Below, piece by piece: positions 7,766 through 63,500 of a DNA stretch of 64,000 nt. The DNA is from Protoeuglena noctilucae. Lineage: Eukaryota. The DNA is taken from contig OY253674.1 in NCBI GenBank assembly GCA_958009085.1, forward strand, positions 806,001 to 870,000, read 5' to 3'. The notes under the pieces are model-generated. The model searched no databases. It was not told where the DNA came from and saw nothing but the letters and a program-made list of their open reading frames with translations. The position numbers and the translations under genes are program-made. Within the stretch, counting starts at the first letter, position 1, and each line of letters opens with the position of its first letter.

Positions 7766-10700
7766 TCAGTGGCCTCCTCTTGCAAAGGGGCTGGCCCAGG
7801 CGTCCTTTCTGACCCCTAGGCCCGGGTCCAGGGCCTGCGCGCGTGAACGGAGACTTGACACAGACGCGCCCGCGTGCCCAGTGATGGCCGCAGCGACACG
7901 CACGGGGGTGACGGAGGGCGGCGCCAGGGCCGTCTCTCCCGGCGCTCGGTAGTAGAACTGCGTCGGGGTCGTCGATCCGAACGCGGAGGGCGCCTTGCCG
8001 GCGTTGATCCAGCGCATAATGTGCGAGGGTCCCTGGGCTGCGGCTGCTCCGGGCGCGCGCGTGGATGCCTCCGGGGACTCGCCAGCGCCAGCGCCAGCGG
8101 CAGGCGGCGCTGGGACTCGAGACCCAGGCGGAGCCGTCTTGATGCCTGAGCGGTCCCCATGAGAGGAGCCGGCTACGCCCTGCGAGGCCGGCGTGGCTCC
8201 AGCACGCGGGGCGGGCGACCCAGCCACGCGGCGGGATGCGCCGGGGGTCCCGGCATGACCCACTGCCCCCGCGGCCAAGGCACGGTCTGTCAGAGGTCGC
8301 AGCGACGCCCCAACGCCCCCGTCCGCCCCAGCCGCACCCCCCTCGTCCCTGCATGTGCACGTGACGTCATCTTGCAATCCCCTGCACCGCATGACGATAT
8401 GCGAAGTTCGGCACAACAGCTCAAACTCAACGCACCTCATTTTGGGAGAGGTCGACGCATCTGCCAGTCCCGCGCTCTTCCCGGCCCTCCGGGGCGACCC
8501 CTCGCCCCAGCTGCCCCGTCCGCTCTGCAACAACCGATCCGCCAGCTCCTGGGCCTGTCGCGCCACCTCCCTCTCCCGCTGAACCTGCAGGCGGCGCCAT
8601 GTCGTCTTGCGATTAATGTGACCCGAAAATGCTGGACTGCCGACTCTTCGCATGTCAGTCCCTGCTCTCACCTGCACCTCTGCCTCCAGCGCGCGGCTGC
8701 GTGCCCGCGACACCTCCTCCTCCAGCTCCCGCACCCGCCCTCGCAGTCCACCCTCCGGCACGTACTTGGTCGGGCTGCTGGGAACAGACGCCTGCCGCGA
8801 CTCCTCCAGCTCTGAGGGCAGAAGCGATGAGTGGCAGCCCAATCGCACCGAAACGTGGGCTGCATTCCAACACCGTGGCCCTCGCTGCATCCCTCTCGCC
8901 TCGGACGCGCGCTCGCAGCGTCGCCAGGGCTTGGTCCCGCTCCTCCAGTTGGCTCGCGAGGCCCTGGACAATCCGCTGCCACTTCCTACTAGCGTCCGCC
9001 TCACCGACACCCACAACCGTGCTGCCCCGCACCGCCAGATCCTGCAATGCGAGGGGCGCCTGATGGTGCAATCTTTGCGGCCGTCGATCGCCAACCCGTC
9101 ATCGACGACGCAGCCCAGGCACGTAAGCAAGTCGCACCTGCCGGTCGCCACCGGTGTCCTTCGCCCCCGCCACGTCTGCTCCCTTCTCAGCCTGTGGCAG
9201 CCCTCGCTGTCTCGAGGACGACACGCGCGCCAGTTCCTCCCGCAGTCCCCGCATCTCCTCCTCATCCTTCGCCATTTGCCGCGCCTTCCCCTCCGCGTCC
9301 TCCGTCAAGATCGCCATCCGACGCTCCAGCGCCTCCATCGCCTCGCGCAGCGTCCTCCCTTCCTCTCGCAGCTCACCCATTGCCCGCTCCGCCTCCTCCG
9401 CTCGCTTCCGCTCGGACGTTACCGCAGCCTCCGCCGCCGCCAGGGTAGCCTCCGCTTCTGCCAGCGCGGTCGCGCGCCGATCGACCTCGCCCCGTACCGC
9501 CTCGGCCTCCGCCCGCAGGCCCTCCGCTTCGGCACGCAGCGCCCGCGCTGCACCCTTGGCCGCCTCAGCTGCACCCTCGGCCTCCCGCAGCTGAGACTCT
9601 AGCAGGTCTGCCCTCTCTCGTGCCTGCCGGAGCCCCTCCACGCGCTCGCCTCCCTCGACCTGCGCCCGCTGCAGTGCTGCCTCTGCCTCCGCAGCACGCG
9701 ACACCGCATCTGCCAGCTTCCGGACCTCGGCCTCGTGGCGCGCCACCAGGGCCTCCCGTTCCGCGTTCCACCCAGCACGCGCCTCCTGCATGCGGCGCTC
9801 CACCTCAGCCGCCGCCCGCCCCGCCGCCCGCTCTTCCGCGCTGCGCAGGTCCGCCTCGGCTTGCTTCCGCACCGCAGCCACCGCCCGCTCGTGCGCTCCT
9901 CGCTCCTCATCTGCTCGCGCCTCGACGTCCCTCACGCGCCCCTGCAGCTCCACCACCTGGTCTGCCACCCTGCCCTTGGCTGCTCGCGTCTCCTGCAGCT
10001 CTCGCAGCAAGGTGGCCCCGGCCGCTCTTTCCTCCGCCACCTCTTTCTTCGCAGCCTCCGCCTCCGCGCGTGTGCTTGCGAGCTCGGACTGCAGCGCCTC
10101 CGCCCTGGGTGCGATGGGCATGCATTGCGACGTGCGGCTCTGTGCGTGCACATGGCACCAGCGGCGCGCTCGCGGGCCTGCGAACCGCACCTGCGCGCCA
10201 GCTCCGCCTCCCGTCCCTGCGCCGCGACGGCCCGCGACTCCGCCTCCGCCAGCGCCCCCGCCACCCTGTCTCGCTCGGCCACTGCTGCCGCCCGCTCCTG
10301 CCGCAGCGACTGCACCGCCTTCTCCAACTCGGACGCCTTGTGCCGCAGCAAGTCCTCCCGGCCCCGCGCCTCCTCCTCTGCATTTTTTGAAGCCTCCCGA
10401 AGGCTCTCCAGTGCCTGCTGGGCCCTGGCCAGGTCGCCGTGCGCGGAGCTCTGCGGCGCAAATGGCCACGGAGCTAGCTGTGGCCTCGTCTACGTCGGTG
10501 CAGACAGCGAGGCAGATTGCGGTCTCCACATCGCCAGGCCCTCCCGGTGCTCGCCCTGGCGCCCTCACCTCCGCAGAGTCCAGCCGCTTCCGCAGCGTCT
10601 CGTAATCCGCTCGGATGCCCGCGATCTCCCGCGTCAGCTGCGCCTCCCGGGCCCTGTGCTCGCGCTCGTTCTCGGCGGCCTCGGCCAGGCTGGCCTGGAC

Positions 10701-11931: not shown

Positions 11932-13091
11932 TCAACGCCAGCTCTCGTCCCTGTGCTGCGCTCGCATCCACTTCGTCGCGCTCCACTTGGTGCCCTTGAT
12001 GACCGGGCAGCCCCCGTGGAGGGAGGCCGGGTCGACGGTGCCGTCGGGGTTGACGCTCCAGAACAGCACCGCGTCCCCCTTGCGCGGCTTCACGGCCAGG
12101 CCCTGCATCGAGCACTCGGAGCCCGTCTGGTCCTTGGGCTTGGGAGCGTTGGGGAAGACCGTCTCCCCGCCCTCCTCAACGTCACTGCGGAGAAGCAGAG
12201 CGTAGGGTAGGTCAGCAAACTCCGCAGGTCCCGGGCCACCGCTAAGCCTCCGAGGGGCACCGCAGCGAGAGAAGGAGCTTTGCTACTTCGACGCCCTCCA
12301 GCCCGCGCGCTCCGTGCCGCCTCGCCTCAGATACATCAGCATCGTGGCCACGCGCTGCCCGCCGTTCGTCGTGTTGATGGTGTCGTGGAAGTAGTCCTGG
12401 TGGGGCTCGTACTTCTGCCCGTCCTCATAGCGCAGGATCTGAATGGCCTCCCCGAAATCCACGGGGATGGCCGAGTACAGAGCAATCCTGCCCTCCACAC
12501 GGCGCACGACGTCGTCTTGGCCGCGTGTCAGGAACATACCGTGGCTCGTGCGCACGGGATCCAGCTTGTCCTCGCCCGTGACCGAGTCGACGACGATGGA
12601 GGGCCGCAGCGCGGGCTTGCCCAGCGCGATGAGGTGGTCGCACTCCTCGTGTCTGCGGCGATGGATTCCTCGCGTTCGGCACTTGCTTCAGGAAGCGTCT
12701 CCCCGGCGCTTAGAAAGCCGGGCGGAGCAGCACGGCGCCCCAACACTCACGTGAGGAAGCCCTCAAAGTGGAAGACGCGCGGGGCCCAGGGGTGCATGAC
12801 GGTTATCTTTGGGACTGGTACCTGCGGACGCCAGCGGCCGTTCATCGAAAAGCGAGGCGCCCAGGCGCAGGCGCGGCATAGTGCACCGCGACAGTTCACG
12901 AGTCCTATGGTCTGGATAAGCACCTGGTCCTGCCCCGCGCCGGTCGTTCCGGGCTGCTGGCTGTCGTGGCTGACTTCCCCGTACCATCCCGGGAACGACG
13001 GCTCCGCGGCGACGCTCCCAGCGAGCATTAGGGCGAACGCGAGCGCCGCAGCCCATCCCCGCCATCCCCGCCGCAACCGCGACGCCCACAT
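11932..13091 (-). CDS. P4H: Prolyl 4-hydroxylase (plant/algal type) with N-terminal signal/anchor, 4 exons
   Basis: PRVFHFEGFLT-HEECDHLI, VRTSHGMFL, QILRYEDGQKYEPHQDYF (HxD), GGQRVATMLMYL-SDVEEGGETVFP, SLHGGCPVIKGTKWSATKW. Confidence 0.95.
12185..12325 (-). other. GC-AG intron in P4H
   Basis: AG|gcgagg...ccgcag|T is the only junction seen that restores the invariant MYLSDVEEGGET. Confidence 0.9.
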
Positions 13092-13506: not shown

Positions 13507-16500
13507 ATGGACGGCAGCGGGGATGACAGCAGCCCACGGCGCGCCCTGCTGGGGCTAGCTGAGAGAGCGGTGAGCCCCGTTGTTAGGGCGCCCCACAGAA
13601 CTTGCGAATGGCGTCGCGAACGCGCGCCCGAGTCATCCCACCATCATGTTCTTGACTTGCACTTCGTGCACTGATAGTAGGGGCACCTGCGAACCTCGTG
13701 CTATTTCTATTCGGGCCTCACGCAGGCGTCCCTGCGAGAGCGCATGGCGCGGGACATCGACAAGCTGGGAGCGGCCGCGTTCGCGCAAGCGGTTGTCTCA
13801 TTCGATACCTCGAAGCCCGTCCCTGGGTCTTGGGGCGAGCCTCCCGCCTCGGGAGAGGAGAACGGTGCGGTTTTTGCAACTGCGCGGCTGTGCCCGGTCG
13901 TGGCCGCTCCGGCCGTGGAGCCCTTCAGAACACGCATTCACATGTTGCTCAACGCAGTGGTGGAGGTCAAGCCGGCGCCAGCCGGGAGGCGCCGGCGACA
14001 GGACGCACGCGACGCCGGATACCAGCCATCCGGGCGACTGCGGGGAGGCCCGGAGGTCAGCACGGCCCACACAGAGGAAGAGTGGGCCCATACAGAGCAA
14101 CGATCGCGGCGCACCAACGCGTTGCCCCCGGCGGAGGCGGGCCACGGGGAGCCGAGGGCGCAGCAGCAGGCTAGCTGGCGTGCGGCGCACAGCCACGCCC
14201 ACATGCGGGGGCCTCCCGGGGCCGCTCGTGCCTTGGTGGGCCGCCCGTACGCGACGTCCACACTGCTGGGCGTGTCCCAGGCCGACCCCGTCCGGCTGCA
14301 GCGGCCCGTTGATGGCGCACGGCGCGCGCACTTGGACCTGGCAGCGGTGCGTGCCGAGGCGGAGGAGCGGGTGGGGCCAGATTTCGCAGACATGCTGTCG
14401 GAGGCGAGGGCGGGGGGCCAGGCGGAGGCCGCGAGGCTGATTGGGGGCTTGGAGCGTCAGCTGGAGGACCTGGCGCGGGAGATGACCGACAAGGCGCCGG
14501 CGTTGACGGAGGACGTGCGCCTGGGGCAGCGGCGGCTGGGGACGGACCTGGAGGCGCGCGCGGGGTCCGCAGCCGGGCCGGGCCCGGCGACGCTGCAGCG
14601 CATGCGGAGCCAGGGGCTGATGCAGGCGCGGGAGCCGAGGGACGCGGAGGCGGGGGACGACGTCGTTTGCCGGTCCCCGTTGCGGGAGGTGGGCGGCATT
14701 CGATTCCGCGTGAACAGCGGCATGGAGGGCGCGCACCGGGGCATGGAGGCCGAGGAGGACGGGGAGGGCGAGGAGCGCGTGAAGGCGAGAGTGGCAGACG
14801 CGGCACGGCAGGCGCGGCGGTTCCGGCTGTTGGCCCCGCAAGTGAACGAGGCCAAGAGGCTCGCGCTGGGGCTGCCGATGACGTACGAGGCGCGGAACGG
14901 GCGCAAGCGGTGAGAGGCAGCGAGGCAGGAGTGCTCCCTTGGATGCGGCTTGCGACGGCGCAGCGTCCCAACCCACCCAACGTGTGTGGGCTGTGGTGCA
15001 AGACTCACACGAGGCTCGCTGTCCTCATGTGCAGGAACCCTCAGGGCCAAGGGGAAGAGAAGGGTTACGAGAAGTGTCAGGAGAAGGCCGACGTGGTGGC
15101 GTGTGCCGTGAAGGCTCTGCCGCGTTCCCAGCCGTCGGTGCTCGCGCAGGCGCTGGAGCAGATCCGGGAGGGAGAGGAGCCCACGTTGCCGACGGGCGAG
15201 GGGGAGGGGCAGGGCGGCGGCGGGTCCCGGCCGCCCGAGCACACGGTGTCGCGCGCGTGGATGGCGGTGCGGAGCCGCGTGGAGCTCATGGCCCTCCCCT
15301 CGCGGAAGAAAGTCGACGGCACGGCGCAGGGGGGCTCCAAGTACGACATCAGCGACGTGGTGCAGCGGGCCAAGCGTGCGGAGAAGTTGGTCGGCGACTC
15401 GGGTCTGACGGGCGCTCTGCGCGAGTCCCTGTCCACGCTGGACAGCCTCCGCAAGAGCCAGGCGCAGGTCATCTCGGAGGCCAAGGTCAGCTACTTCCTG
15501 TCCAGCGACCGCTCCCGCGTCACGGGCAGCCTGGCGCGGGGCGCGGCGAACAACCCTGGCGCGCGCACGCCCACGCCCGAGCTGGGCAAGGCCGACGTGC
15601 CCTTGGTGAAGACGGATTTGCGCGTGGGCGACGCGGAACCCGTCCGTGCGGCGGACCCCGTGCGTGTGGCAGCCGGGGGTGCTGCCCTGGACGGGGAGGG
15701 GTCGTCGGATGGGACATACGCCATGCGCGTGTCTGCCGCGGAGTTGGAGAGCGACCAGGAGCTGGACGCGACGCGCTGGAGGGACACGGGTGAGGCGGGG
15801 GGACTGGCCAGGGTTAGGAGTGCTAAGTTGGCGGGTGACTGCTCCTTGGCTTTTGCTGGATGTTCACGGTGTGTCGATGTGCGGGTGCCGCGCAGACTGG
15901 GAGGAGGTGGAGGACCACGTCAACAAGCACAAGGTCAAGGCGGGCGGCAGCGCCAAGCCGGTCACGGGCGCCAGCCGCGCCAGCAAGGAGCTCCGCGACA
16001 TCCTCGTGCGGCTCGTGGAAGCGGTGGGGGGCTCCCGCGCGGAGATTGAGACGTACCGCCGCAAGGTGTTGTACGCCAGGTGAGCTCATCACTCAGCATA
16101 AGTGTGCCGGTGTGGATGCGATCGCTCGACGGGGGCGGCGAGGCTGGACGGGGCGCGCGTCGCAGGAACCACCCGCTGATGACGGACGCGGACGTGGAGC
16201 AGCCGCCTGGGGTGCGCGAGTCGCGTCGGCTGGTGACCGAGTTCCTTGGCCGGCTGCGCATGGGGCTGATGGACGCCGAGCGCATGGGCACCGCCGTTGG
16301 AGCGGCGCTCCTCGGCATCCATGCCGAGGCCAGGGCGTCCCTGGTGGCCGGGCTGGTGCTCCTGGAAGAGGGGCCCATGCTCCACTACTTGCAGGCAAGG
16401 GCCGTGCCGGGCAGTGCTGCTGTCACCCTCTCGGTCTGCTCCTGCGGTGGTCATCCTCACATGTGGGTGCTTGCTTTGCGTCGCTGCAGGAGTCGTACAT

Positions 16501-25490: not shown

Positions 25491-25685
25491 AGGCAGTCGC
25501 CGGGATTAGTATAGCGTAGTGTCGTCATTGCAACATAGGAGGATAGGCCAGAGGCAGGATAGGTCCCCTAGCATGGCACACGACTTGCCGATGCCCTGTG
25601 ATGTTGCTGGGATGCGCAGCATTGCCACTCGGTCGTTTGCACAGTTGAATCTTTACGCAACAGCAGAAGCGTTTCCGCACAGCAC

Positions 25686-47473: not shown

Positions 47474-50400
47474 ATGGACCTGCGGGAGCTGGTGCATGCC
47501 CTTCAGGGCACCATGCATCCCGAGGAGGGCATCAGGAAGGCCGCGGAGGCAGCCCTCTCCAAGGTGCCGCGCCGTCGCGCGAAAAGATCCGGCGGCGTCC
47601 CTTGAATTGTCTGCCCTCGCACGGATTGCAGCTCACTCGCATGCGCCGCGGGCCTGCCGCCGTCCCTGCTGGCGGCCCTAGCCACGGCGCCCGTCTGCTG
47701 TCGTTCTACGCCTCGCCCCTCCCTCGCCGCGCAGGCCAGTTCGCTCCCCGGCTTCGTGTCTGGTCTGCTTCAGCTAACCGTGATGCCCGACACGTCCCTG
47801 GACGTGCGACAGATGGCCTCCATTCAGCTGAAAAACACCGTCATCCGGCACTGGGTGAGGAGCCCGCAGCTTAGGGCCGCCGCCATCGCGACATGGGCCC
47901 AGAGCATCGAGGAGATGACCTGCGCTAGGTGGCGACGCCAGACGCCTCCGGCTGGCCGCAGGAGATCCACAGCGACGGGACAAGCGAGCTGCCCGACGCA
48001 GACCGCGCGACGGTGCGTGCCAACATCATCCCCTGCATCATCCAGTCTCCGCACCTGGTCCGGGCACAGGTGACGTGGCCCATCGCAGGAGTTTGCTGCG
48101 CGCGCCGGCACTCTCTGCCCCAGCTCTCCTGCCTGAGGTCGAATCGCGTGACCCCAGCGTTGGACCCGCAGCTGGTTGAGACGGCGAGGGAGGTCATCAA
48201 CGAGGACTATCCTGGCCGATGGCCGGAGCTGTTGGACGTGATCGACGGGCACCTGAGCAGCGGAGACCAGGGCACCGTCCACGGCGTGCTGTTCGCGTGC
48301 CGCCTGCTGTGCCGGCGGTACGAGTTCAAGGATGAGGAGGAGAGGAGGTGCGCATGTGACACAGACGCATCCACGACTCATTCCTCCCTCGCTCGCGCTT
48401 CCCTCGATCCCTCGCTACCCTCGCGTTGCCTCACGCAAGCCCTGCGGCCTGACCCCCCCTTACTCCGACCCCACCCTCAGTGGCCTGGACGAAGTCGTTG
48501 CTCGCATCTTCCCCAAGCTACTCCTGCTCCTGCGGGAGCTCCTCTCCCAGCCCTGGGCCGCCCTGGCCCAGGCGGACATGATCAAGCTGGTCCTCAAGTC
48601 CTTCTGGAGCGCCAACTACCTGCACGTGCCCAAGCCCCTCGTGGATGCGAGCGTCTTCCTCCCCTGGCTGGAGTCGATCGTGGCTGTGATCCAGCACCCG
48701 GTGCCAGAGGGCCAGCCGGAGGACCTGGACGAACGGAAGCGGTGGTCATGGTGGAAAGTCAAGAAGTGGGCCATGCACATCGCGGGGCGATTGATCAGCA
48801 GGCTCGGGGACCAGGTGGGTGTCGGTGGGTTTGTGAGGACGGGCGTATGCGCCAGGCCAGACATGCAGGACGCCTGCGGTCCTCACCCTCACATAGCTGC
48901 ACCCGAGAGGTCCTCGCAGCGTTTGATTCGCACCTGTCCCTCGTTACCTCCGGGGGAGATGGCCCGCGATGGCCTCTGCATGACACCTTGCCGTTCTGAC
49001 ACATCTCCCTGACACCGCCGCCCCCGCAGTCTTCGCTGACTCAGGAGGAGGACCAGGCGGCTTCGGCGCTCTTCCTGGGCCAGTGCATCCTGCCCCTGAC
49101 TCAGGTGTACCTTCAGATCGCCTCGGAGCTGTCCCGTGGCACCTACATGCACCCCCGCTGCATCAGCCAGGCCATCACGTACCTGTCGGAGGCTGCCATC
49201 GTGCCCCAGTCCTACGAGGTCATGAAGCCCCACATGGAGTCGCTCGTGCTCCACGTCGTCTTCCCTCTCCTGTGCTTCTCGGATGAGGACCGGCAGCTGT
49301 GGGAGGAGGACCCCCAGGAGTACGTCAGGAAGGGGTACGACGTCATTGAAGACCTCTACTCGGAGAAGAACGCAGCCACGGTGTTCCTGGTGAGAGGTTG
49401 GAGGAGCTGTGATGGAACTGCGACTCTCACTCACTCGCTGGGGCTGTCAAGGCGACTCCTCCAAACAGGGACGGGGACCGGCAGTGTGTGTACAGGCTAG
49501 GCGGCGTGAGAGCCGTGATGCTTGCCGATGCCGTCTCTAAGCTGCGCATCGCCCTCCGTGGCATAGGAGCCCGTGAAGCTTGCCGATGCCGTCTCTAAGC
49601 AGCTGCGCGTGACCCCTGGGCTGGTCCGCAGATCGAGGTGGCGGAGAAGCGCCCCAAGGCGCACCTGGGGATGATCCTGGGCCACGTGGCACGCGTCTTC
49701 GGGGAATTCACCGCGGCGGGGTCGGGCGCGACGGAGGCGCAGGCGCGGCGGATGGACGGGGCGCTGCTGGCGGTGGGGGCGCTGGCGACTGTGCTGCGGA
49801 AGAAGAAGGCATACAAGGGCAGCATCGAGCCCATGATCCTGCAGCACGTCATGCCGTGCTTCCAAAATCCCCACGGCTTCCTCCGGTGCGCGCGCGGGAC
49901 TGGGTCTGAGGGGCTCAGCAGGACTGACACCCACGCCGCCACTTGGTGTTTTGTCGAACAACCACCACCTGCCCCCCTCCGCGCGCAGGGCCAAGGCGTG
50001 CTGGGTGGCCCACAGCTTTGCGGACGTGAGGTTCCGCGACGGCCGCGGCAAGGGGCCCACCTTCTCCGCGCTGTGCGAGAACGTCATGCGGTGCCTGGGG
50101 GACCCCGAGATGCCCGTCCGGGTGGACGCGTGCATCGCCCTCAGCGACTTCGTCGAGTGCATCGAGGACGTCCGCGTGCTGCACCCCATCCTCCCGCAGC
50201 TCCTGCAGGCGAGGATGCATGCTCGTGGCACACTGCACCTGGCCACCTGTGCTGCCCCACTGCGCTATGGGTCCTGCCTCTTCGCCCCCGCGCAACCCCG
50301 CGCCTGCGTTCCCGCAGTCGATCTTCGCGCTGATGGCCGAGGTGGAGCACGAGGAGTTGGTAACGACCCTTGAAACGATCGTGGAGCGCTTGGGATCCGC

Positions 50401-52666
50401 CATCGCGCCTTACGCCGTCGACCTGTCCCGGCAACTCTGCGAGGCCCTGGCCAAGTTAGTCTCCGCGGACGACGACGAGAACGAGGCCGGGATCATGGTG
50501 AGCAGCTTGCCTGTCACATTTGCCATCCCACCAGTGCCAGTCGCGTGCCGGTCTCGCTCACACAGCCACAGACCGACACGTCGTGGCGTCGCTCTCTTGC
50601 ATCGTGCGCACTCCGCTGCTCTGCTGCCGGCCTGGCCAGGACGCCTCGCGCTGCTCCACCCCTCGTAGGCGGCCTATGGGTGCGTGAGGGCCATGTCGAC
50701 TGTGGTGGATGCCGTGTCTGACCTGCCTGAGCTCATACCTCAGCTGGAGGAGGTCTTCTTCCCCGTCCTCAAGACCATGCTTTCCGGTGTTCACGGGTGA
50801 GAGCGAGACGCGGCCATTGCTCACGGATGATTACGGTGACGTGACCACGTGTTGCTGTTCGGATGTGTGCGGTCGTCACTGCAGGTCCGCGCTGAGCCCT
50901 GCGCCGCTCTTAACTCCCGCGCCTGCCCCTGCTTGTCTCGTTTCGATGCAGGGACGACTTGATGGAGGAGGTCCTGGAGCTGCTGTCGTACCTCACCTTC
51001 TACAGCACGACCCTGTCGCCGCGCATGTGGGAGCTGTGGCCGATCCTCCTGGACGTCCTGCTCAAGATATCCGTGGACTACTTCAACCGCGTGTTGCCGT
51101 GCCTCGACAACTTCATCAGCAAGGGCAAGGAGGCCTTCTTGTCCAACCCTTACTACCTCTCGTCCACGCACGACCTGGCGCGGTGGGCATTGGAGAACGA
51201 CGACTTCGACGAGTCCACAGCGAAGAACGCGGGTGAGCGTAGTATTTTACAGGGGCGTTGTTGACGTTAAAACATGGGCTGCCCTCGGCTAGAGTGCAGT
51301 GTTGGTATCGGGTCAGCAGTTGTCCGGGTGCCCCTGCCCTGCGACCAAAGCCCCACCGCACCTTTCTCCTCTTTCCGCCCCTCGCAGCAAAGCTCCTGGA
51401 GGCCGTGCTGCAGCAGTGCCGGGGCCACGTGAACAGCTCCGTGGGCCCCTTCCTGCGCATGGTCTACGCGCGACTGCAGAAGCCCTTCCAGCAGGCGTCC
51501 TTCCAGGACTCCCTCATGCTCGTCGTGTTCAACGCGCTCTACTACGACCCCGCCCTGACCCTGCGGGAGCTCGAGGGTATGGGCGCCCTGGGCCCGGTCT
51601 TCACGATGGCCGCCGCGATGGTCCGCGCGAGGAAGTCCAAGAGGCCCAACCGGCCCCAGCACTTCCGCGACGAGTACTCCAAGAAGGTCGTGTGCCTTGG
51701 GCTGACAGGTGGGTCCGCAGACGGGCGCGTGCTTGGGCCTGGGGTGGGTCGTGCTTAGGGATGACATGCGAGAGGAGTGAGAGCAAGTAGATGTCGCAGT
51801 GGGTGCATCATTGTTGCTCTAAGATGGTAACAACAGTTGGTAACAACCCACCAGGGTGCTTTTGCGTGCGACAGCAGTCACCGTCTGTGCTCCCCCCGCA
51901 GCGCTGATGACTGTGGACGACGCGAGCCTGCCGGCTGCGATTGGGGGCAGCGCCAGCTTGGGCGTGGCGTTCGAGATGCTTCTGCAGTTGCTGGGGTTCC
52001 TGAAGGACGACATGGAGAGGGCACGGCTGGAGGAAGAGGCGAGTGGTCCTGTGGGAGCCGCCCGCTGCGCACGCGCTGTGCCCGCGCTGTGCCGGGTGGC
52101 TGCAGAGGGATTCGTTGCAGAGGGTTTGGCTAGCATGCGATGTCCAAGCCGGCACCGTCGACTTGGCCGTGCTTGAGGGGCTGAGGTCGGTCCGCTGCCG
52201 CCGCTTGCAGGCCAGCTCGGGCAGCGGCAGCGATGGGGACGACGACGAGGACCTCGACGATGGGTACGGGGAAGAGGATGGAGCGTTAGGGGAGGACGTG
52301 GAGGTGCAGGACGTGCAGTTGAGCAAGCTGGTGCGGCGGCTGCAGGGTGGCGACCAGGGGAGCAACAGCGACGACACGAGCGATTGGGAGTGGGAGGAGG
52401 AGGCCGAGGTGTTCAGCTGTCCGCTGGACGACATCGACGCCTTCGTGCAGCTGGCGGACTGCATGGAGGCCATGCGGGGGCTGCACCCTGCGCGGTTCGA
52501 GGCCCTGACTGGCAAGCCGGAGCTGCAGGGGGCGCTGCAGGAGGTGTCGTTGTACGCGGACAAACGCCGGCAGGAGATCGCGGCGGAGAAGGCCGCAGAG
52601 CAGGAGGAGGAGGCCAAGAAGCAAGCGAAGAGGATGGCGGGGCAGATGCCGCCCGCGGGCCAGTGA
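47474..52666 (+). CDS. Importin-7/8 (SAD2-like importin beta), about 16 exons
   Basis: IBN_N [66 protein letters not shown]; acidic tail ending PLDDIDAF. Confidence 0.93.
50209..50317 (+). other. GC-AG intron in importin-7/8
   Basis: CAG|gcgagg...ccgcag| restores LPQLLQ-SIFALMAEVEHEELVTTLETIVE, colinear with the family. Confidence 0.88.
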
Positions 52667-52973
52667 CGTCACTTGCGCGGCGCGAGCCGCGGCAACCCTA
52701 GCAGCTTCGTGGCAGCGGACCCTTACGTTTGAAGCAGAGAGGTAGCTGGGGCATGAGTCGATTCATGCGTGTCGTGAGAACGTGGTGTCAGGCGTGGGTT
52801 TTGGAGGGCTTTCCCTCAAGGACAGCCCACTAGTCTCTTCTGCCGGCTGTGCATCGGGCTTGGACAATTCGGCCCGCTTGCTCAGCCAGCGTCGGGGCCG
52901 CCAGGGCTTGCCTGGAGGCGTCCGCGACCACCTGAGCGCTGCCGCGCCTGTCACTGGGAGCCGTGGGGACAAC

Positions 52974-55158
52974 ATGGGTGGCGGGCTCGGCTTCCTTATG
53001 AAAAAGACATGGCACCCTGCCCGGATTCAGAATGTCGAGCAGGCGAGCAGCGTTGCACGAAGCGTTCGAGCTCTTCGATGACGCACGGCTCGCTTGGGCC
53101 GCGGTCGTGCCTCGCGGCCTTTTCATGCAGTAGTGAAGGCCGTCTTCTGTTCGCTCGCAAGCATTTCTGCGAGCCGGCTGCCTTGGCCAAGGTGAAACGG
53201 CTGGGGCGGGTTGTGGACGAGCCGGCGCACAGACGACTGCGCTCTGCCCGGGGCTTGCAGGTGTGGAAGAAGGAGCAGGAGAAGGAGAAGGAGGAGCGCA
53301 AGCTGGAGGAGCTGCGCAAGCAGATCCAGGAGGAACGCGACCGAGATGCGCTGCTGCAGCAGGCAGAGCAGGGCGGCCACCTTGAGCGCACTGCCCGCCT
53401 CGACTGGATGTACATGGGAGGCATGCAGGGCCAGGCAGCGGCCCAGCAGCGCGAGGCGGAGGAGGCGCGCAAGGAGGTGAGCGCAGGGGGCCGGCGCGTT
53501 CTCTTCGCGCCTCCATTGGCTGCGCGGCAAGCTTACATCTCTTCTGTTGTCTATATACGATCGCAGGAGCAACGCGCACCTCTGACCCACACGGAGGCGC
53601 CGGGCAAGGGGTCGCTGCCGACGCTGCCGTCCTTCTACACGGCTGCGACGCCCGCGGCCCAGAACGAGATGTGGCAGCGGATGACGAACGATCCTTTGGT
53701 GGCTATCAAGCAGCAGGAGAAGGCGGCCCTCGAGCGGCTGCGCAGCAACCCGGTCGTCATGAACCGCATCAAGGCGGAGGTGGCTGGGGCGCTGAGCCCG
53801 CGGGCGGGGAGCTCCGCGATGGCATCGGAGAAGAAGGAAAAGAAGGAGAAGAAGGCGAGGCAACAGTTGGAGCGTCGCGTGTTTCAGCAGGGCGAGGTTG
53901 AGGGCGGGGTGCAAAGGCAGAGCTGCGTTGCATGACAGGATGGTGTCTTTTGATTCCGTCTGCAGGACAAGAAAGAGAAGAAGGAGAAGAGGGAGAAGAG
54001 AGACAGGGATCATAGGCGCGACAGGAGGGATTCGCCGCCCCCGGAAGGGCGGTCGAGGTCTCCAGCTGGGGAGCCATGGGGGGAGGGGCAGCGGAGGCGG
54101 TCGCGCAGCCGGGACAGGCGGAACGGGGACCAGTGGTGGGTGCCGAGTGGACACAGGGACGGGCACAGGGACGAGCGAAGGGATGGGCAGAGAGATGGGC
54201 ACCGGGATGAGCGGGGAGACGGTTACAGGGATGGTCACAGGGATGGGAGGCGGGATGACCGGCATGATGGGCACAGGGACGGTCACAGGGATGAGAGGCG
54301 GGACGGGCACAGGGATGAGAAGCGGGATGACCGGCATGATGGGCACCGGGACGGGCACAGGGACGGGGACCAGCGCGCTGGAGAGGCTGGCGCGTTATCG
54401 TATGGACTGAACTTCAACCGTGATGTGGGCGACGCGGAGGTTGCGGGGACGGCCGCGCGCGCTGAGGGGACGCGCGTGAGGCTGCAGGAGGCAGAAGAGC
54501 GTGCGAGGAAGGAGGAAGAGGAGCGGCGCGCCGAGGAGGAGAGGAGGAGGCGACGGTGCGGGGGTTGGGCTGCGCGCTCCGTTGCTTGGCTTGTGCGCTG
54601 GCGCGCGTGGCGGCCATGCTGGCACCGGTCTTGCGCTCTTGCCGTCTGTCGCATTTCTTCCATGGTTGCACGCTGTCAATCATGGTACCCTGGTGCGTCG
54701 ACTTTGCAGGGGCCAGTACCGCCCGGGGCAGATGACCGAGGAGGAGCGGGCACGGAGGCTGGCGGAGATGGCGGGGAACGCGGAGGAGCACGAGAGTTCC
54801 CGAACGCGGCGGCTGCGGATGCTCAAGGAGCAGGTGACTCGCGGGCATGGCATCGTGGATGGGGTGCTACGGAGACGCCGTGCTGTTCAGCAGTCGCTAC
54901 CCTCTCCAGGGCAGTGTGGGCCAATGCATGTTCTGTCGATGGTCAGTATGGCTGACCGTCTGTGTTGCGCTTGTGCAGGAGGAGAGGGAGGCAAAGGAGC
55001 TTGAGCGGAGGATGGCGGAGCGCGATCCTCACCACAAGGGTCGTTTCATGGCAGCAGTCGAGAAGGAGGTCTCTGGGACGGGGGCGGGTGGGGGCACGCT
55101 GAGCGATAGGGTGCGAGGGAGGGCCTTCCTCAGTCAGCGGGGGGCCGGCGACGGATGA
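52974..55158 (+). CDS. CWC25: Pre-mRNA splicing factor CWC25
   Basis: [48 protein letters not shown]-rich and RD-rich segments, [13 protein letters not shown]. Confidence 0.92.
53043..53260 (+). other. GC-AG first intron in CWC25
   Basis: CAG|gcgagc...ttgcag| restores KKTWHP...NVEQ-VWKKEQ. Confidence 0.9.
54145..54372 (+). repeat. 12-bp-based coding repeat (GHRD/ERRD) in CWC25
   Basis: Repeated gg[g/t]cacagggac/gat units translating to [12 protein letters not shown]... Confidence 0.85.
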
Positions 55159-55325
55159 AGTGCTGGGGACGTTGAATGTGCGCATTTCACAAAGGCAGAG
55201 TCGTGGCGTCTATGGTGGAAAGTAACACTGGCAAGCGCTAGAGTACGGCGCTGCTTCGACACGGCCCCGACTGATGGGCGCCGGCGAGAGCGGCCTTCGG
55301 CGGTTTGCTGAGTAGCGGAGGGCTC

Positions 55326-57071
55326 TCAAAGGCCCTCGCTCCGTACCACAAAGCCGACGATAAACGTAGCGAGGAGGGAGAGGGTAAAGGCGCCCGCACC
55401 GAGGGCTTTGCTGGCGGCCGTGTTTTGATCCACAACCACCTGCCGCTCGTCGTCTTCAGCCAGCTGCGAGCATGGATGGGGATGCGAGGGCGTCACGCGC
55501 GGCCTTACTGGAGTGTGGGCCAGTCGACGCAAGTCTCAGCATCCATCAACGGCAGTGACAGGCCTCATCCATCCCAGCGACCCTGGCACCGCGGTGCCTG
55601 AACCCCCACCCCGCCAGGTCTCACGTTGTACAGGTCCATGGCGCCGTCGCTGATGGAGGGCTCGCGAATCACGACGAAGCGCGGGCCCATGGCAAATCCC
55701 AGGAACAGCCCCGCGATGAGGCCGCCGAAGTGGCCCGTGTTGTCGACCTGCAGGCTCGGCACCAGGCCCACCGACAGGCTGGCGACGACGACCATCACAA
55801 TCAGCGTCAACTGAGGGTTGCGGTTCTCGAGCATGGGGTTGCGGAAGAAGTACCCCGCGAGCGCGCCCAGCATCCCAAAGACGGCCCCCGACGCCCCCAG
55901 CGTGACGGTGTCGGTCAGTAGGAAGGCCGCCGTGGCCCCGCTGAGCTGCGAGAGCGTGTAGATGGCCACGAAGACCCACGGGCCCATCACCGCCTCGACC
56001 TCCGGGGCGAGCTGCCACAGAGCGAGGGTGTTGAAGCCCAGGTGCAGGAGGCCCGCGTGCACGAAGCCCGACGTCAGCATCCGCCACAGCTCCCTGCGTA
56101 TGATGCAGAGGCAGCCGTGAGACCGCCGACCCGCGAGATGAGACACCGTGGCATGCGACAAGTCATGGCAGGTCGCTCACCCCCGCAGCACCTCCTTGTT
56201 ATCCTTCGCCAAACCCAGCAAAAAATCATTGGCGACGTCGGCACCGTCTATAAAGGTCTTTGAGATTCCAATCGCATACACGCCCACGACCAACCCGATG
56301 ATGACGTAGGAGAGCGTCGGCTCGGAGAGGGGCAGGTCCACGGGCTCGCCCACCTGCAAGATACAAACGCTCAACACGGGCATGGACCGGCGCGGGCAAC
56401 GCTCTGCTCGCTGCTTGGCCGCCAAGGTCAGGCCCTCCTACGAGGCCCTTGCGAAAGGCGAACGGCGCGGCATTCCAAAGGCGCACGCGCGGCTTGTTCC
56501 GTGCGTCACCTTCGTCAATCTGCCAGTGCGGGCTGTGCTGCGATCCAACAGAAAGGGAAAGCCGCGGTCATCGTCCAGCAGTCCCTGCGTGACGTTGGAC
56601 GCCGTTTTCCGCAGCGGCCGGCCCATGTTTGGCAGGTCCATCCATGACAACGTCACGGACGCTGCGTTTAAAAGGCGTTCCGCCGTCGGGCGCGGGCATC
56701 GCGGCAGGGCGCGCGGCGGGCCGACCAACATGCGCGTGATCGGGTCCCGGCTGCCTCGACAGAGCCCGCCGGCAGAAGGCGCCGTGCTCACCTGTCGTGT
56801 CTGCGACGTTCTTGCTCTTCGCGTCGCTGCTGCTGGCGTCCTCCCCCGGCGCGCCCACGAGGTTGACGATGGTCGAGATGGTCGGGGACGGAGAAGGCGG
56901 TTTCTCAGGTTTCTCAGGCTCGGCACGGGCGCGCCCGGCAAAGCGTGGTCGCATCGGCTGATAGCTCGGCGTGGCGACGCCGGAGAGCGGCGGGGCGAAG
57001 TATAGAAGGGGGGGCGCCTGGACCGTCCGCGAGGCGGCATGCTGGGCCCCGAGGGCCGGCCCGATTCGCAT
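55326..57071 (-). CDS. Rhomboid intramembrane serine protease, probably plastid-targeted
   Basis: ELWRMLTSGFVHAGLLHLGFN, catalytic GASGAVFG, DNTGHFGG; transit-like N-terminus ..RFAGRARA; extra C-terminal TM. Confidence 0.92.
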
Positions 57072-57571
57072 GGGGGTCGCCCTGCCGAGCTAATGTCAGT
57101 CAGATGCCCAAACTGGGGCGAGTCGCTGTATATACGCGGAATGGAGAAAATGCCGCCGTGGTCAGCGCAACGACACCCTGACCATGCAGCGCGCACAGGA
57201 CTGCGACACCCTGGGCGCTGCGACTCCAGACAGGATCAGTTACGCATGCTTAAAGCACCAGCAGGAGCGCGCGCCGAAATGGCTTTGCTTGGTTACTGGA
57301 AACACTTTTCTGACCGTGTCACTGGCACGCCAGTTGCATTTCGAAACGAAGCGAGCGAATGCATGCTTGCGCGGTTCTCGGCAAACATTCGTGCATTGCG
57401 TTGCTCGAAGCGCGCTCTCTCACGCCTCGGTTGCTGAAAACGCCGGGAAGGCTCGTGAGTCCGGCCATGAACGCGTAAATCTGCTCATAAATGCGCGGTG
57501 TGGGGCCCCGCGTCCCCCCTGCGCCCCTGGCTGCGCGGCCCTGAGGAGGCTGAGCTCGGGCGGGCGACAGG

Positions 57572-60500
57572 ATGGACAGGAAGCGGGAGTGGAGCCACGC
57601 GCCCTTTGAGGATGGCAGGGAGGGGGAAGGCGGGCCCCCGCCGCCGAAGCGGGGCCGGCAGGAGTCCTTTGGGCGTGCACCGGTCCCGCTCCCAAGTCCA
57701 GCCGCGCCACCGCCGGGCGCGAGGCCGGCCCTAGGTGAGCCGAAGGGTGTGGGTGTAAGGAGCGCGCGCAGTGCCTTGTTCTCGCGACTGGGGCCCTTTA
57801 GACGCCTGTCAGTCCCACGAATTGGCTGCCGCCCTTGGCGAATTTGTTCTCCGCCCCTCTCTGGCAGAGGAGGGCTGGTCGGCTCGACTGCTTTCCAAAG
57901 ATGCAGTGTTGGGATCACGGGTCCCAGGTCCCGGGCTCCCCAGCTTCCTCGCAACCCGCGCCCATCCGCGCTCGTGTCGCCGTGCCTGCAGTCGGCCGAG
58001 GCCGGGGTCTGGGACGGCCGCCGGGTCCCGGCTTGCATCCTCCCGCCCCCGCGCCGCTTCCCTTGCGGGGCCCCGGCCCTGGCTTGGTGTGGGCCAAGAG
58101 CGGCACCCTCCCTCACAACCGCCACACTCCGGGCCCCTCTTCGAGCCCTCCCCTGCCGCCCTGGAAACCGCGGGACGCCTCCGCGGTCCCGATCCGCCCG
58201 CGAGACGGACCGCCGCCTCGGAGGACCGACGGGCCACCTCCTCCCATGGTACGTGCGCGTGCGTGGGCATGACCAGCAGGTCCAGCCGCACATCAAGCTT
58301 TGCTACTGAAGTGGTCTCTTTGCTATCTCCCGCAGGTCTCCCGGCGTCCTTCCCTGCCCCCGCCGCCCGTGCGGCCTCCCCTGCGGCGGTCCCACGACCG
58401 GGAGCACCCGCGTCGCAGGAGCGCCAGCCCGCCCACCAGCGCGGTGGCCCACGGGAGCACCGACCGGGGGTCGTCGCGCCGCAACTCCCGCGGCCTCTCC
58501 TCCGACATCGAGTCCGGCGGCGCCGAGGCCTCCCAGGACCCCCGCTCGCTGCCTCCGCCGCCGCCGCCGCCCCCGGGCCAGGTCCCTTGGGGCCGGCCGC
58601 ACGGGGCGCGCACCGCGCCGGACGCCGCGCGCGATGGGCGGGGCCCGTGGTCGGCTCCGGTGGGCGGGCGCCCGGTCGCAGAGCGGGACCGGGACGGGGA
58701 CGTGCTGCCCCCGCCGCTGACTCAGGGCCGCAGTCAGACGTGGCCGATCGGCCGCGCAGCAGACGAGGCGGCGGAGGACGAGCCGTCGCTGCCGCCGCCG
58801 CTGACGGTGAGCCTGCGCGGCGCGGGGCTCCTCGGCGTCTCTGCCAGCGCAGGCTGGCGAGTTCTGAGCCGCAACTGCACGCCCTCGGTCGCTGCACCGC
58901 AGTCGCTGCGGCCCCTGGCGCTCACTCCGGTCAAGGGCGAAGAGGGCGCGCGGGGAGCGGAATCCCAGAACGGCGAGGCGCGGCGCAGTCGATCGGAGCG
59001 AGGCCATGGGTCCTTGGGGTCGGCTGTCGACCTCCCAGGCCCGCCCTCGCTGGCAGTCGGGGCATCGAATCCCGCGGAGGAAAGGTCGGCTCTGGCATCG
59101 TCGCGGCCGCTGTTCGGGTCCGGGATGGTCGGGGCGTCCGCCAAGGGCCTCGCGCCCCGGTGGGGCAGCGGGGTGGGCGGAGGCGCCGCGTCGTTCGGCA
59201 CGGGCACAGGCCGCGTGGGCAGGGACGCGCCCAGCGATGCTCACGCGGACGACGGCGCGGAGGGGAAGGGGCCCGGCCGTGGGGGTGGCGGGGTCGGAGA
59301 GGCACGTGATGGGTATGGGGCTGCGGGCAAGAGCAAGGACGAGGTGATGGGGGAGCTGGAGAGCGTGGACGCGGAGATGGCCGCGGAGCACGAGGCGCTC
59401 GCGGCAGTGCAGGCGGAGGAGGGGCGGCTGGAGGCGCTGTCACGGGAGCTGGAGGCCGACCGACAACGCCTGGTGAGCGACGTGTGCGACAAGGGGGCTG
59501 GTATCGGCAGGCAGGGGCTTGGCATATATGTCTAGTGTCAAACAGCACGACGTGAGGGGGCCGTCATCTTGAGGAAGCCTCATGCCACCAGCATAAAGCC
59601 ACCCGCGCTCACGCAGGCCGACTTGGAGAGGAGCCTGCACGTCGCTCGCACGGCTGCCGAGAGGCGGCGCGAGGAGCGAAGGCGGGAGGCGGAGGCACGT
59701 GAGGCGCGGCGGGTGGGGGCGGAGCGGCAGCGGAGGGAGAGGGAGGAGCGGAGGAAGGCGGAGGAGGCGTCTGCTGCCGCGGAGGCCATGCAAGTGGACG
59801 GTTTGGGCGACCAGGTGAGAGCGGCGATGGCGGCGAGCACTGGGGGCATGGCTATCACCACTAAAACATTGAGGATGCCACATCAGCGTACGCTTGCCAC
59901 CTGCAGCCCGGGCCGGTCGCAAGCATCGCCGCCGCCCGCCCCGCGGCGCTCCCGGCCGTCGATTCCCGCACGCGGCACGTGCTGGAGAAGCTGCTGGGGT
60001 CCCTGCGGCTGAGGGACTACGGCGACGTGGACCGCCGCGTGACGCTTCTGGTCGTGCTGCGGAACAACCGAGGCGAGGGGCAGCAGATACGGCAAAGCTT
60101 TGGTATCGTTGATCCTCTCCCTCCTCTGCGCAGCGGGGGTCACCCTCATGCATGGGCGTCTCATCACCCGCAGCGCCCTCATCGACTCCTCTCGCTCTAA
60201 CGCCCGCAGCCAGCGCTTTGGAGCAAACGCTGCGGCTCCTGGATTGCCTGCCTCCCCCCAAGGGCGCGGGCCCTCTGGTCAAGGCCGAGGCGCGGCGTGT
60301 GGTGGACGCCCTGGGGGTTGAGGACCCCGTGGCACTGCCTTGGCCCCCGGCGCTGTACCGCAGCCCCCGCGACGCGCCCGGCTTCGAGCGCAACGCCGCC
60401 GCGCACGAGCGCTGCCGCCACGCCATCCAGGCGGCTCTCCAGGCGAGTCCTCGCTGCGCCCTCCTCACCTGACCTGGCCAGTCACCGCTTTGCTGTCCCT

Positions 60501-63500
60501 GCACATGCACAGCCGTGCAGTTCTCACCAACTAGTCCCCTGTCGGCCCCCGCAGAGTCGCTTAGACGCCCTCCGTGGTCTCCAGAGGGACTTGGCCCTTC
60601 AGTACCGCGTGCTGCGGGCGCAGTGGCGGCAGACGCCCGAGGCCCGGCAGATCTACAGCCCGCGGCCCAAGGACCCGGAGGTCGCTGCGCTGGCGGGGCT
60701 CCCGGCCCTGCCCGGGCGGCGTATCCTGGATTGGAACGCCGCGACGGCGCAGGGGCCCACTCCGTTGGGGCCCCGGCGGGGTGGCGACGGGGGCGCGACG
60801 ACGCCGGGCGCGGGGACCGGACGGCGGGGCCAGGGCGATGCCGGGGCTGGGCCGGAGCGGGGCGCAGCCAGCGGTGGCCGGCGGGGGTCGCGCGGGAGGT
60901 CGGAGGCGGTGGCCCCTCCGACGCCCAGCGCAGCGTCGGCCTTCGACGATCTGCAGTTCGAGAAGCGGCAGGAGGAGGCGCGAGCGGCGCAGGCCACCGG
61001 TGCATGCGTGCGGGGTGCCAGCGGTGGTGGAGCGGTGGTGTGGCCGAGGGGGGGTGTGGGAGAACTACTAGTTCTCTTACCCCATCTCAATTTGAGCCTC
61101 GTTGTATTCACACGTGTGCTTTGCCCACGCAGTTCGTTGCACGGACATGGTCCTCGACCCGTGGGAGTCGCGGAGGCGGTGTTTCCTGTCGCGCAACAAC
61201 CTGGTGGACCCATTGAAGGAGCTGGAGCTGGAGAGGCAGGGGGACGGGAGGCCCTGGACGGCGCGGGAGCGGCAGACGTTCATCGGTGAGTGGCAGGGGG
61301 TTGCGTGTGCGTGGAGGCAACACGTCATGTGCACCCATCTGTGCACCACACGTCTACGTTGTGTATCCCCGCCCATGCTTGTGGTGCTCGTCCGAGCAGC
61401 ACCATGCCATATCATCCGGTATCCGAGAGCTCACGCGTGTCTGAGAATGGTTGAACATCCCTGCCCCTTTCCCTCGCAGACCGCTTCAACCAGTTCCCGA
61501 AAGACTTCCCCAAGGTCGCGGCGGCCCTGCCCGGCCGCACCATGTCCGAGTGCATCATGTTCTTCTACCGCAATCAGAAGAAGCCCGAGTTCGAACCGGT
61601 CCGGAAGCGCCAGCTGCAGCGCAAGAAACTCCAGCCGCGCATCTACGGGGCCGACGTCATGTCGCGCGCCCTCTCGACCAACGCGGGCGCCAGGGCCGCC
61701 CGGGGCACGGCGCGCGCGGAGATGGGCTTCCCGCGGGCCGCGTCGGCGCCGGTCGGGCAGCAGGGGGACGCGCCGCCCTCGTCCCTCACGCCCCCGCCCG
61801 CCCTGCCGCCCCTCTCCCTTGACATGCCCCTCCCGCCCCTGCCCGGCATCGAGGCCTTCTCCTCAGGCGGCCTCGTCTCCCTGCCACTGCCCCTCCCGCT
61901 GCCCCTGCCCCTACCCCTCGACACGGCCAGCGCCCCGCTCCCCACCACCGCACGCCTCCCCACGCCGCCCCCCCGGTCCGCGGCCCAACGGCGTCCCTCG
62001 GGGCCCCAGGCGTCATCCGCGCCCGCGACGACCTCCGCGACCCCCGGCGCCGCGTCGGGGGTCGCGAGCGCGGCCGCAGAGCCTGGGCAGGCTCCGTTGG
62101 TGACGGCCGGCCTTGAGCTGCCGCCCGCACTGCTGGGGCCGGTGCCCCCGATGCCGGGGCTGGGCGAGGGCGCGACGACGCGCGGGCGGCGGAGTCGTGG
62201 CCGGGGGCGGGGCTCCCGGGGTCGCAAAGGGAAGGAGGCGAAGGAAGGGGCGGTTGATTGGATGGGTCAGTTCGGTGGGACTGGGGCGGCGTGGACGCCT
62301 GCTGAGGAGGCGGCGCTGATGGCCTCGGGTGAGTGGAGGGGGTATTCGTAGTGTGGGGGAGGTGTCGATGTTGATGGCAGCGTGGGGTGCGTGGGGAGCG
62401 GGGTGCATGGCACCGTCTGGCTCGCTGCCGCTCCATATCTCAGTCCTTCCTTCTTGCCTATCCTGCAGTGCGCAAGACTGGCCTGGACTTGCAGTTCCTG
62501 GCGCAAGACATGGGGCCAGGGCGGACGGGGCCCGAGTGCATGGCGTACTTCCTCACCCACCAGCAACGGCTCCTCACCGATGTCAACCTGTGGGCGGTGC
62601 AACCCAGGGCCGGTGCGGCCCCGGCAGCAGATGCGAAGGGGGAGGCGCCGCGTTCGGACGCCGGCGCGGTTGCGGGCGCGACTGCGGGTGCGGGGGCAGA
62701 TACGGGTGCGGGTGCATCGCGATCGTCGATGGATGGGAAGGCGCGGCCTCAAGAGACGCGGCCTCAGGAAGGGCCAGGGACTGCGCCGCCGCCGGTGTCT
62801 GCGGCCCAGGGGAGCGCGAGGCCACACTCCGCGCCCGTGCTGGACCGCATTCCCACCGCGGTCCGTCGCAAGTCGGTCGACCGTCCCGTCCTGCCCGGGC
62901 CTGCTCACGGCCAGGTGTTGACTCCCGAGGCGGCCCTGGTGGCGCTGGCGCAGGCGCAGCAGGTGCAGGCGCTGCAGGCGCTGTCCCTGGCCCAGGCGGG
63001 GGTCCCCGGTGGGGCAGAGGCACTGGCGGTGCTGCAGGCAGCACTGCTGACGCACCAGCTGGGGCTCCTGGGGCAGCCGGCGGCCCTGCAGGGCGTGGGC
63101 GCGGCGGGCGCCAACCTGGGCCTGCTCCTCGGCATGGGCCTGGGGCTGCCAGGCATGGTGGGTATGGCGGGTGCGCCGGGGTTCGGCCACGCGGGGGCAG
63201 CCCTGAGTCAGGCCCAGGCGCACGCGCAGGTGCAGGCGCTGATGGCCATGACCACGCAGGCGCAGATGCAAGCGCAGATGCAGGCGCAGCTGCAGGGCTT
63301 CCTGGCCAGCTCGGTGGCCTTTGCCGCGGCGCAGCAGCCAGGCTTGGGGCAGGCGCAGAGCCCGGCCCCGCGCTCAACGACACAGACATCGGCAGCGCCC
63401 GGGGCATCGAGCGCGGCCAGCCACGCTGCACGGGCGAGGGGAGCGGCGCGAGGGGACACTGCGCCCGACACCGCAGCACCGCCACCTACCCTAACAGCGG

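Follow-up and report, generated by a model that had tools for sequence, protein, structure and literature searches.

Do introns that begin with GC rather than GT and end with AG (GC-AG introns) make up an exceptional share of the introns of a GC-rich green alga, and can they be recognised reliably? The question is raised by 64 kb of the genome of the chlorophyte Protoeuglena noctilucae (contig OY253674.1, positions 806,001 to 870,000; this whole stretch is called the window here, and positions are counted from its first letter). GC content is 65 to 72% across blocks of the window and about 68% overall, and there are about 20 intron-rich eukaryotic genes with about five introns per gene. An earlier note on this DNA had claimed GC donors (5′ splice sites) at 17 positions, one of them ambiguous. 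We find that the excess of GC-AG introns in the window is real and was correctly read, and that it matters for annotation. We consider it probable that these are U2-type introns, that GC donors account for about 15% of introns in this 68%-GC window, and that they reflect GC-biased pressure together with compensation through U1.

GC motifs at the claimed donors

G and C occupy positions +1 and +2 at all 17 claimed sites. The intron begins with GCGAG at 14 of these, with GCAAG at two (16395 and 44759) and with GCACG at one (31912), and exonic AG precedes 16 donors, the exception being 24829 (TG). The motifs, which the earlier note had described as nearly all having exonic AG, are thus in place. 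The heptamer AGGCGAG occurs 29 times on the two strands, against 19.5 occurrences expected from dinucleotide content. We conclude that the motif on its own is weak evidence for a donor in such GC-rich DNA, and motif-independent tests were therefore applied.

A codon hidden Markov model (HMM) that is blind to splicing delimited 94 coding segments, which formed the basis of a position test. Sites at most 20 nt from the 3′ end of such a segment make up 7 of the 29 occurrences of AG/GCGAG (the slash marks the exon-intron boundary), 11 of 25 occurrences of AG/GTGAG, and 5 of 151 occurrences of six control heptamers. The coding score in the frame of the exon also drops at most claimed sites.

RNA joints and homology across junctions

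Assembled metatranscriptome contigs from four runs (X1 to X4) were placed over positions 44001 to 64000. Among the joints listed (15 of 40), 14 resolve to one canonical placement, 11 as GT-AG and three as GC-AG. The three GC-AG joints coincide exactly with claimed donors, each is present in X1, X2 and X4, and no GT-AG placement is possible inside the alignment ambiguity.

46229 to 46335, minus strand: GC-AG intron of the uS5m-like gene; donor cag/GCGAGG, acceptor CGCAG; contigs in X1, X2 and X4
50209 to 50317, plus strand: GC-AG intron of the importin/Cse1-like gene; donor cag/GCGAGG; contigs in X1, X2 and X4
52039 to 52210, plus strand: GC-AG intron of the importin-like gene; donor gag/GCGAGT; contigs in X1, X2 and X4

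For the first of these, GC-AG is the sole canonical placement within an ambiguity of 5 nt. The chance of finding at least three GC donors among 14 joints is 3.4e-4 if their rate is 1%, and 2.5e-3 if it is 2%. Contig pieces imply a further, fifteenth GT-AG intron at 62329-62468.

Two observations on the RNA data stand apart from these counts. One joint, from 61912 to 63264 (plus strand), skips 1351 nt, has AC..GC ends, and is anchored by 21 nt on one side, where the coding sequence of the SANT gene is of low complexity; it was set aside as an intron, being probably an artefact of alignment or assembly in low-complexity sequence. Run X3 contributed 42 contigs placed on 44001-64000 with no joint, even where contigs from X1, X2 and X4 are spliced. 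The X3 library may represent DNA or unspliced RNA of the organism, and we counted it neither for nor against introns.

Three more claimed donors, at 12325 (minus strand), 53043 (plus) and 24829 (plus), are confirmed as those of GC-AG introns by gap-free homology across the junction.

12185 to 12325, minus strand: GC-AG intron of the prolyl 4-hydroxylase (P4H) gene; donor gag/GCGAGG, acceptor CCGCAG; continuity with PDB chain 2jig_A
53043 to 53260, plus strand: GC-AG intron, the first of CWC25; donor cag/GCGAGC, acceptor TTGCAG; continuity with human CWC25
24829 to 24948, plus strand: GC-AG intron of the 2OG-oxygenase-like gene, 120 nt, in frame and free of stops; donor ctg/GCGAGT, acceptor CCGCAG

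In the P4H gene, the upstream exon aligns with Chlamydomonas 2jig_A up to chain residue 140 and the downstream exon from residue 142; the split codon supplies residue 141, so the junction at 12325 has no gap. Use of the in-frame GT at 12334, with its score of -4.8, would remove three residues of a conserved strand of P4H.

Exon 1 of CWC25 (52974-53042, 23 residues) has a sole PDB match, residues 2-21 of human CWC25 (5yzg_X; E 0.18). Its last residue falls at 5yzg_X position 22, and exon 2, from 53261, begins at position 23 (E 3e-6). The Cir_N profile agrees, since its positions 14-37 match exon 2 residues 2-25 in the same register as 5yzg_X. The repeats at 53262-53304 and 53827-53858 were skipped in contig placement. 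The C-terminal part of the protein (53964-54555, plus strand) is a long run of short repeats rich in Arg, Asp, His and Gly.

For the oxygenase gene, the open reading frame (ORF) that reads through the intron was searched against 1.84 billion representative proteins, and the 77 best non-self matches were assessed. The match falls into two stretches in 73 of these 77 homologues, with a median gap of 40 residues in the query and -1 in the homologue; the first stretch mostly stops at query residue 49, and residues 89-90 are the usual start of the second; these are the codons that flank 24829-24948. When four homologues (P0183-P0186) were aligned by tblastn, the gap lay exactly over the 40 codons of 24829-24948. 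Two GT introns, in frame or neighbouring, also emerge from these alignments, together with a last exon absent from the gene model. The oxygenase gene (23831-25500, plus strand) has a further GT-AG intron at about 25183-25341, with its last exon beyond an apparent stop at 25186-25188; this intron and the last exon are visible only through the alignment with P0183-P0186.

Frequency of GC donors in the window

Introns were modelled across the window with our own dynamic-programming gene finder, which combines codon log-odds, a length prior, and donor and acceptor matrices derived from the 14 RNA joints only. It admits both GT and GC donors, with a fixed probability P(C) of C at +2, and its intron penalty was calibrated, the uncalibrated version having over-split the window into 383-609 introns. 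With P(C)=0.1 the gene finder called 97 introns; after subtraction of nine antisense overlaps there were 93 in 20 genes, 78 with GT and 15 with GC donors. The GC share is 15/93, or 16% (Clopper-Pearson interval 9-25%). With P(C)=0.01, 12 of 95 introns had GC donors, and the GC donors at 46335 and 60443 were still chosen with P(C)=1e-7. The gene finder recovers 12 of the 17 claimed sites and reproduces the 62329-62468 junction, which was outside its training set. It also calls GC donors at 32387, 40727 and 63353 in real genes; these are candidates only, two being weak and one being followed by a stop codon.

When GC was disallowed, 13 GC donors in real genes gave way to GT sites with scores between -6.3 and +0.9; for comparison, the GT donors verified by RNA have scores of 2.3-5.8. 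Two of the GT-only choices, 50170 and 52096 (in place of 50209 and 52039), clash with the RNA contigs. At all modelled GC introns the frame-compatible GT alternatives score at most 0.5, and for four introns none exists. The expectation that GT-only predictors would mis-model genes is therefore borne out, with 13 GC introns replaced by poor GT sites and two of the replacements contradicted by RNA.

After corrections from homology, the total comes to about 95 introns, of which 14-19 have a GC donor, or about one in 5-7. The earlier note had estimated about one in eight of 120-130 introns: the excess it described is real, but the total is nearer 95 and the share nearer one in 6-7. Its claim of a frequency about tenfold above the usual 1% agrees with our counts for the window (3 of 14 RNA joints; 15 of 93 modelled introns). 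GC donors are found in at least 10 genes, from 12 kb to 60 kb, in blocks across the whole range of 65% to 72% GC.

Intron class and donor strength

The GC-AG introns here look like ordinary U2-type introns of the major spliceosome, judging by their motifs. In the minor, U12-type class the donor is [AG]TATCCTT and the conserved branch site is TCCTTAAC; the GC donors here, all GCGAG, GCAAG or GCACG, are not of that kind. GC introns have a median length of 113 nt, against 119 nt in GT introns, and both groups use the same YGCAG acceptor. The acceptor is GCAG in all 15 RNA-supported introns and YGCAG in 14 of the 15, and GCAG is also present at 12185, 24948 and 53260, so that G at -4 seems near obligatory in the acceptors of this organism. 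In the donor logo, 81% of introns have G at +3 and 87% have A at +4, which is likewise unlike U12 donors.

Across the eight positions of the U1 consensus other than +2, the six verified GC donors match at a mean of 6.33 and the 14 verified GT donors at 5.21 (one-sided Mann-Whitney p=0.011), a contrast inflated by the preselection of the three homology-tested sites by motif; the three RNA-verified GC donors taken alone each give 6.5. AG/GYGAG is present in five of six verified GC donors and in one of 14 GT donors (p=0.002). The claim that GC donors fit U1 better than GT donors in this DNA is thus upheld. We conclude that the stronger GC donors argue that C at +2 is still costly.

This suggests how the excess may have come about. 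A C at +2 would cost one base pair with U1, and stronger pairing at other donor positions would compensate. GC-biased substitution, presumed to lie behind the 68% GC content, would act on the T at +2 in donors that are otherwise strong enough, and the situation may be the same as in other GC-rich algae. Burset (2000) and Thanaraj and Clark (2001) reportedly described GC-AG introns with a compensating, stronger donor consensus, and the stronger context of GC donors here fits that rule.

Besides the preselection by motif, several points weigh against this reading. The data cover one 64-kb window and nothing genome-wide. The listed RNA joints are 15 of 40, and the other 25 could alter the GC fraction; the RNA runs all come from one study and are represented by assembled contigs only. 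The gene finder has faults: it fused importin to CWC25, so that 53043 was missed, read through the 24829 intron, misplaced one acceptor and missed the last oxygenase exon. Finally, GC content is insufficient alone, since Micromonas commoda, at 64% GC, has only 1.5-2.7% GC donors; we therefore infer, rather than observe, a cause in mutation bias.

Likely, candidate and doubtful sites

As a set, the 17 claimed donors fared unevenly: six are verified by RNA or homology and eight are likely, while 26707 is probably a gene end, and 8899 and 37308 lack a GCAG acceptor. The eight likely GC-AG introns have their donors at 16395, 31007, 31912, 32826, 44759, 53855, 60073 and 60443.

16395 to 16489, plus strand: likely GC-AG intron; donor cag/GCAAGG; called even at P(C)=0.01; drop in coding score; GT alternatives at most -1.6
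30893 to 31007, minus strand: likely GC-AG intron of COG5; donor aag/GCGAGG; called by the gene finder; no frame-compatible GT before the stop
31912 to 32049, plus strand: likely GC-AG intron of the ankyrin-repeat gene; donor gag/GCACGT; called by the gene finder; only GT alternative -4.6
32826 to 32923, plus strand: likely GC-AG intron of the ankyrin-repeat gene; donor tag/GCGAGG; called by the gene finder; stop 40 nt past the donor; GT alternatives at most -0.6
44759 to 44861, plus strand: likely GC-AG intron of the HYLS1-like gene; donor aag/GCAAGG; called at P(C)=0.1 and 0.01; GT alternatives at most -3.6
53855 to 53965, plus strand: likely GC-AG intron of CWC25; donor aag/GCGAGG; called by the gene finder; GT alternatives at most -1.4
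60073 to 60209, plus strand: likely GC-AG intron of the SANT/Myb gene; donor gag/GCGAGG; called by the gene finder; GT alternatives at most -3.1
60443 to 60554, plus strand: likely GC-AG intron of the SANT/Myb gene; donor cag/GCGAGT; stop 27 nt past the donor; no frame-compatible GT

The donor at 44759, ambiguous in the earlier note, is now likely. At 53855-53965, RNA contig pieces begin at 53964, which equals the acceptor at 53965 within the ambiguity of the AG and so bears on the acceptor side only. In the ankyrin-repeat gene, Pfam ankyrin matches end at most one residue from the donor at 31912 and resume at most one residue from its acceptor.

Several searches yielded nothing that bears on these junctions. 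Among longer proteins, no homologue of the large SANT-gene exon was found. The homologues retrieved with the ankyrin ORF were confined to an unspliced ORF call of the same DNA (P0001) and distant, mostly bacterial ankyrins, and gave no test of the junction. In a metagenome scan, the exon lying between 60073 and 60443 matched 10 loci at 52-64% identity along some 35 residues; as unrelated sequences they were left aside. PDB searches with both exons flanking 60443 gave chance matches only (E>0.6), and single exons of the COG5, HYLS1, SANT, 16395 and 37308 genes had no Pfam match of use for junctions. A possible resemblance of the stretch about the 60443 junction to an N-terminal motif of NCoR-type corepressors was left out of the evidence.

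Of the remaining claimed sites, 8899 and 37308 are candidates and 26707 is doubtful; an extra candidate called by the gene finder is set beside them.

8812 to 8899, minus strand: claimed candidate in the coiled-coil gene; acceptor CCTCAG scores -2.0; the gene finder favours a weak GT at 8873 with an acceptor at 8810
37216 to 37308, minus strand: claimed in-frame candidate; donor 4.8; only in-frame acceptor TCCCAG, -2.0; read-through open for 507 nt; no homologue found
26696 to 26707, minus strand: claimed donor; read-through reaches a stop after four codons; GTGAGT 11 nt downstream; no convincing downstream exon
40615 to 40727, minus strand: extra GC-AG candidate in the eIF4B-like gene; donor aag/GCGAGT 6.4, acceptor 5.1; the next 'exon' is a stop codon only

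The sole frame-compatible acceptors for 8899 and 37308 (CCTCAG and TCCCAG) are without the G at -4 that all 15 RNA-supported introns have. The claim for 26707 is not supported: with a stop after four codons and no convincing next exon, this is probably the end of the gene. The candidate at 40615-40727, very strong by its scores, closes the eIF4B-like gene on its 3′ side, where the stop would be the first codon after the candidate intron.

Genes and organism of the window

Pfam matches in the window include LepA, DDHD, P4H, a parvulin-rhodanese protein, an SLC13-type transporter, COG5, ankyrin and Rad51, and further an eIF4B-like protein, HYLS1, uS5m, importin/Cse1, CWC25, rhomboid and SANT/Myb. 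By its protein matches, the organism is a green alga, a chlorophyte lacking any annotated close relative. Structures of Chlamydomonas P4H give good alignments with the P4H exons; the best named matches of the parvulin-rhodanese protein, which is encoded by a single-exon gene, are from Edaphochlamys and Volvox (47-51% identity); and the named homologues of the oxygenase come from a pedinophyte (64% identity) and a trebouxiophyte (62%). Of sampled words from 50001-60000, a fraction of 0.32-0.52 is present in four marine metatranscriptome runs of one study; the organism is therefore marine and its genes are expressed in nature. An Rfam scan of the window found no family at the gathering score and no gene for a small nuclear RNA.

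Alternative explanations

The alternative that survives best, which we nevertheless hold to be unlikely, is that the spliceosome of this lineage has changed (in the U1 5′ end, U1C, U6 or Prp8), with relaxed recognition in which C at +2 is no longer disfavoured. Published figures lend it something: about 15% in regular, non-repeat introns here exceeds both the 9.7% of regular introns in Micromonas pusilla and the 7.7% in Chlorella, and GC content alone fails to predict the rate of GC donors across species. However, the verified GC donors are clearly stronger at their other positions, as expected if C at +2 is costly, and the U1 5′ end is given as canonical in Aureococcus and M. pusilla (PMC3033335), which argues against a need for an altered U1. 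A broader version, also improbable, would combine an intron-rich lineage with relaxed or re-tuned 5′ splice-site recognition (through U1C, Prp8 or U6), or with regulatory intron retention at weak GC donors, beyond mutation pressure; it includes the point that about 15% in regular introns would exceed the share reported for those of any other green alga.

It is distinctly unlikely that the excess is confined to the window or to very GC-rich regions, with a far lower share genome-wide. What was sampled is indeed a single 64-kb window of 65-72% GC, but within it GC donors spread over at least 10 genes between 12 and 60 kb, and they occur in blocks over the whole span of 65-72% GC.

Very improbable is the suggestion that most claimed GC donors are chance occurrences of AGGCGAG near a GT that is really used. 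About 19.5 of the 29 occurrences are indeed expected by chance, 26707 is probably one of them, and 8899 and 37308 may be others, but six of the 17 sites are verified, which refutes the suggestion for those; GT alternatives score at most 0.5, against 2.3-5.8 for RNA-verified GT donors, and the control heptamers do not lie at the ends of coding segments.

A mobile, repetitive family of introns (introner elements) can be dismissed as a source of the GC donors, although 79% of M. pusilla GC donors are stated to lie in the element D-IE1 (PMC4815162), since all-against-all blastn of 94 introns found no shared sequence at E<=1e-3 apart from one overlap of a false and a true model at the same locus, and introns without common sequence are not introner elements.

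Consequences for annotation

GT-only prediction would damage about one intron in six, and hence most multi-exon genes, in this genome. Of the 94 modelled introns, 33 are divisible by three in length, and several are free of stops (for example 24571-24681, 24829-24948 and 53477-53566). Because many introns are in frame and stop-free, long ORFs run straight through them and ORF callers do the same; a public protein collection contains such read-through ORF products of this DNA (P0001 and P0182). GC-rich lineages in which GC-AG introns are known to abound are few, and the window adds to them a green alga rich in introns. Without introner elements, this alga is better suited to the question whether the trait can be put down to GC pressure by itself.

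Comparison with known systems

The abundance of GC-AG introns may be unreported for this lineage; its kind has already been published for GC-rich algae, a point absent from the earlier note. In a preprint on a 70%-GC pedinophyte genome, 'splice' is absent and 'intron' appears once, for chloroplast genomes, and the papers searched for GC-AG alongside prasinophyte names included none with both, except one on a euglenid. Iwata and Gotoh (2011) gave GC-AG shares of 39.6% in Aureococcus, 22.2% in M. pusilla and 7.7% in Chlorella, noted that GC-AG introns track the highest genomic G+C, and termed their origin an enigma; the U1 5′ end was canonical in Aureococcus and M. pusilla (PMC3033335).

M. pusilla, like P. 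noctilucae, belongs to the marine green algae; its GC content is about 65%, and its GC donors, overlooked by GT-only predictions, were found with GC-tolerant RNA-seq aligners. According to van Baren (2016), M. pusilla CCMP1545 has 25.6% GC donors, the share being 9.7% among regular introns and 43.5% among introner elements, and M. commoda has 1.5% (PMC4815162). The two systems differ in that 79% of GC donors lie in introner elements in M. pusilla, whereas the introns here share no sequence, and in that M. pusilla has 0.9 introns per gene against about five here.

Feldmesser (2014) reported 56-60% GC donors in Emiliania huxleyi, with ab initio models biased to GT, and ascribed the GC donors to high GC content (PMC4028052). 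That genome has 65% GC and canonical AG acceptors, as here, but E. huxleyi is a haptophyte in which GC donors are the majority (56-60%), against about 15% here. The pelagophytes Aureococcus anophagefferens and Pelagomonas calceolata have 14-17% GC-AG introns (10.1101/2024.10.30.620910), the same magnitude as here at similar GC content; they differ in being stramenopiles and intron-poor, with 0.2-0.9 introns per gene. Chlorella sp. resembles the present case in being a GC-rich chlorophyte. Chlorella is also intron-rich. Its share of 7.7% is about half of our estimate and derives from gene models, not RNA (PMC3033335).

With the ordinary GC-AG introns of plants and animals, those described here share the U2 type, the AG acceptor and a donor consensus that is stronger at other positions. 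The difference lies in frequency, which is about 1% in plants and animals and about tenfold higher here.

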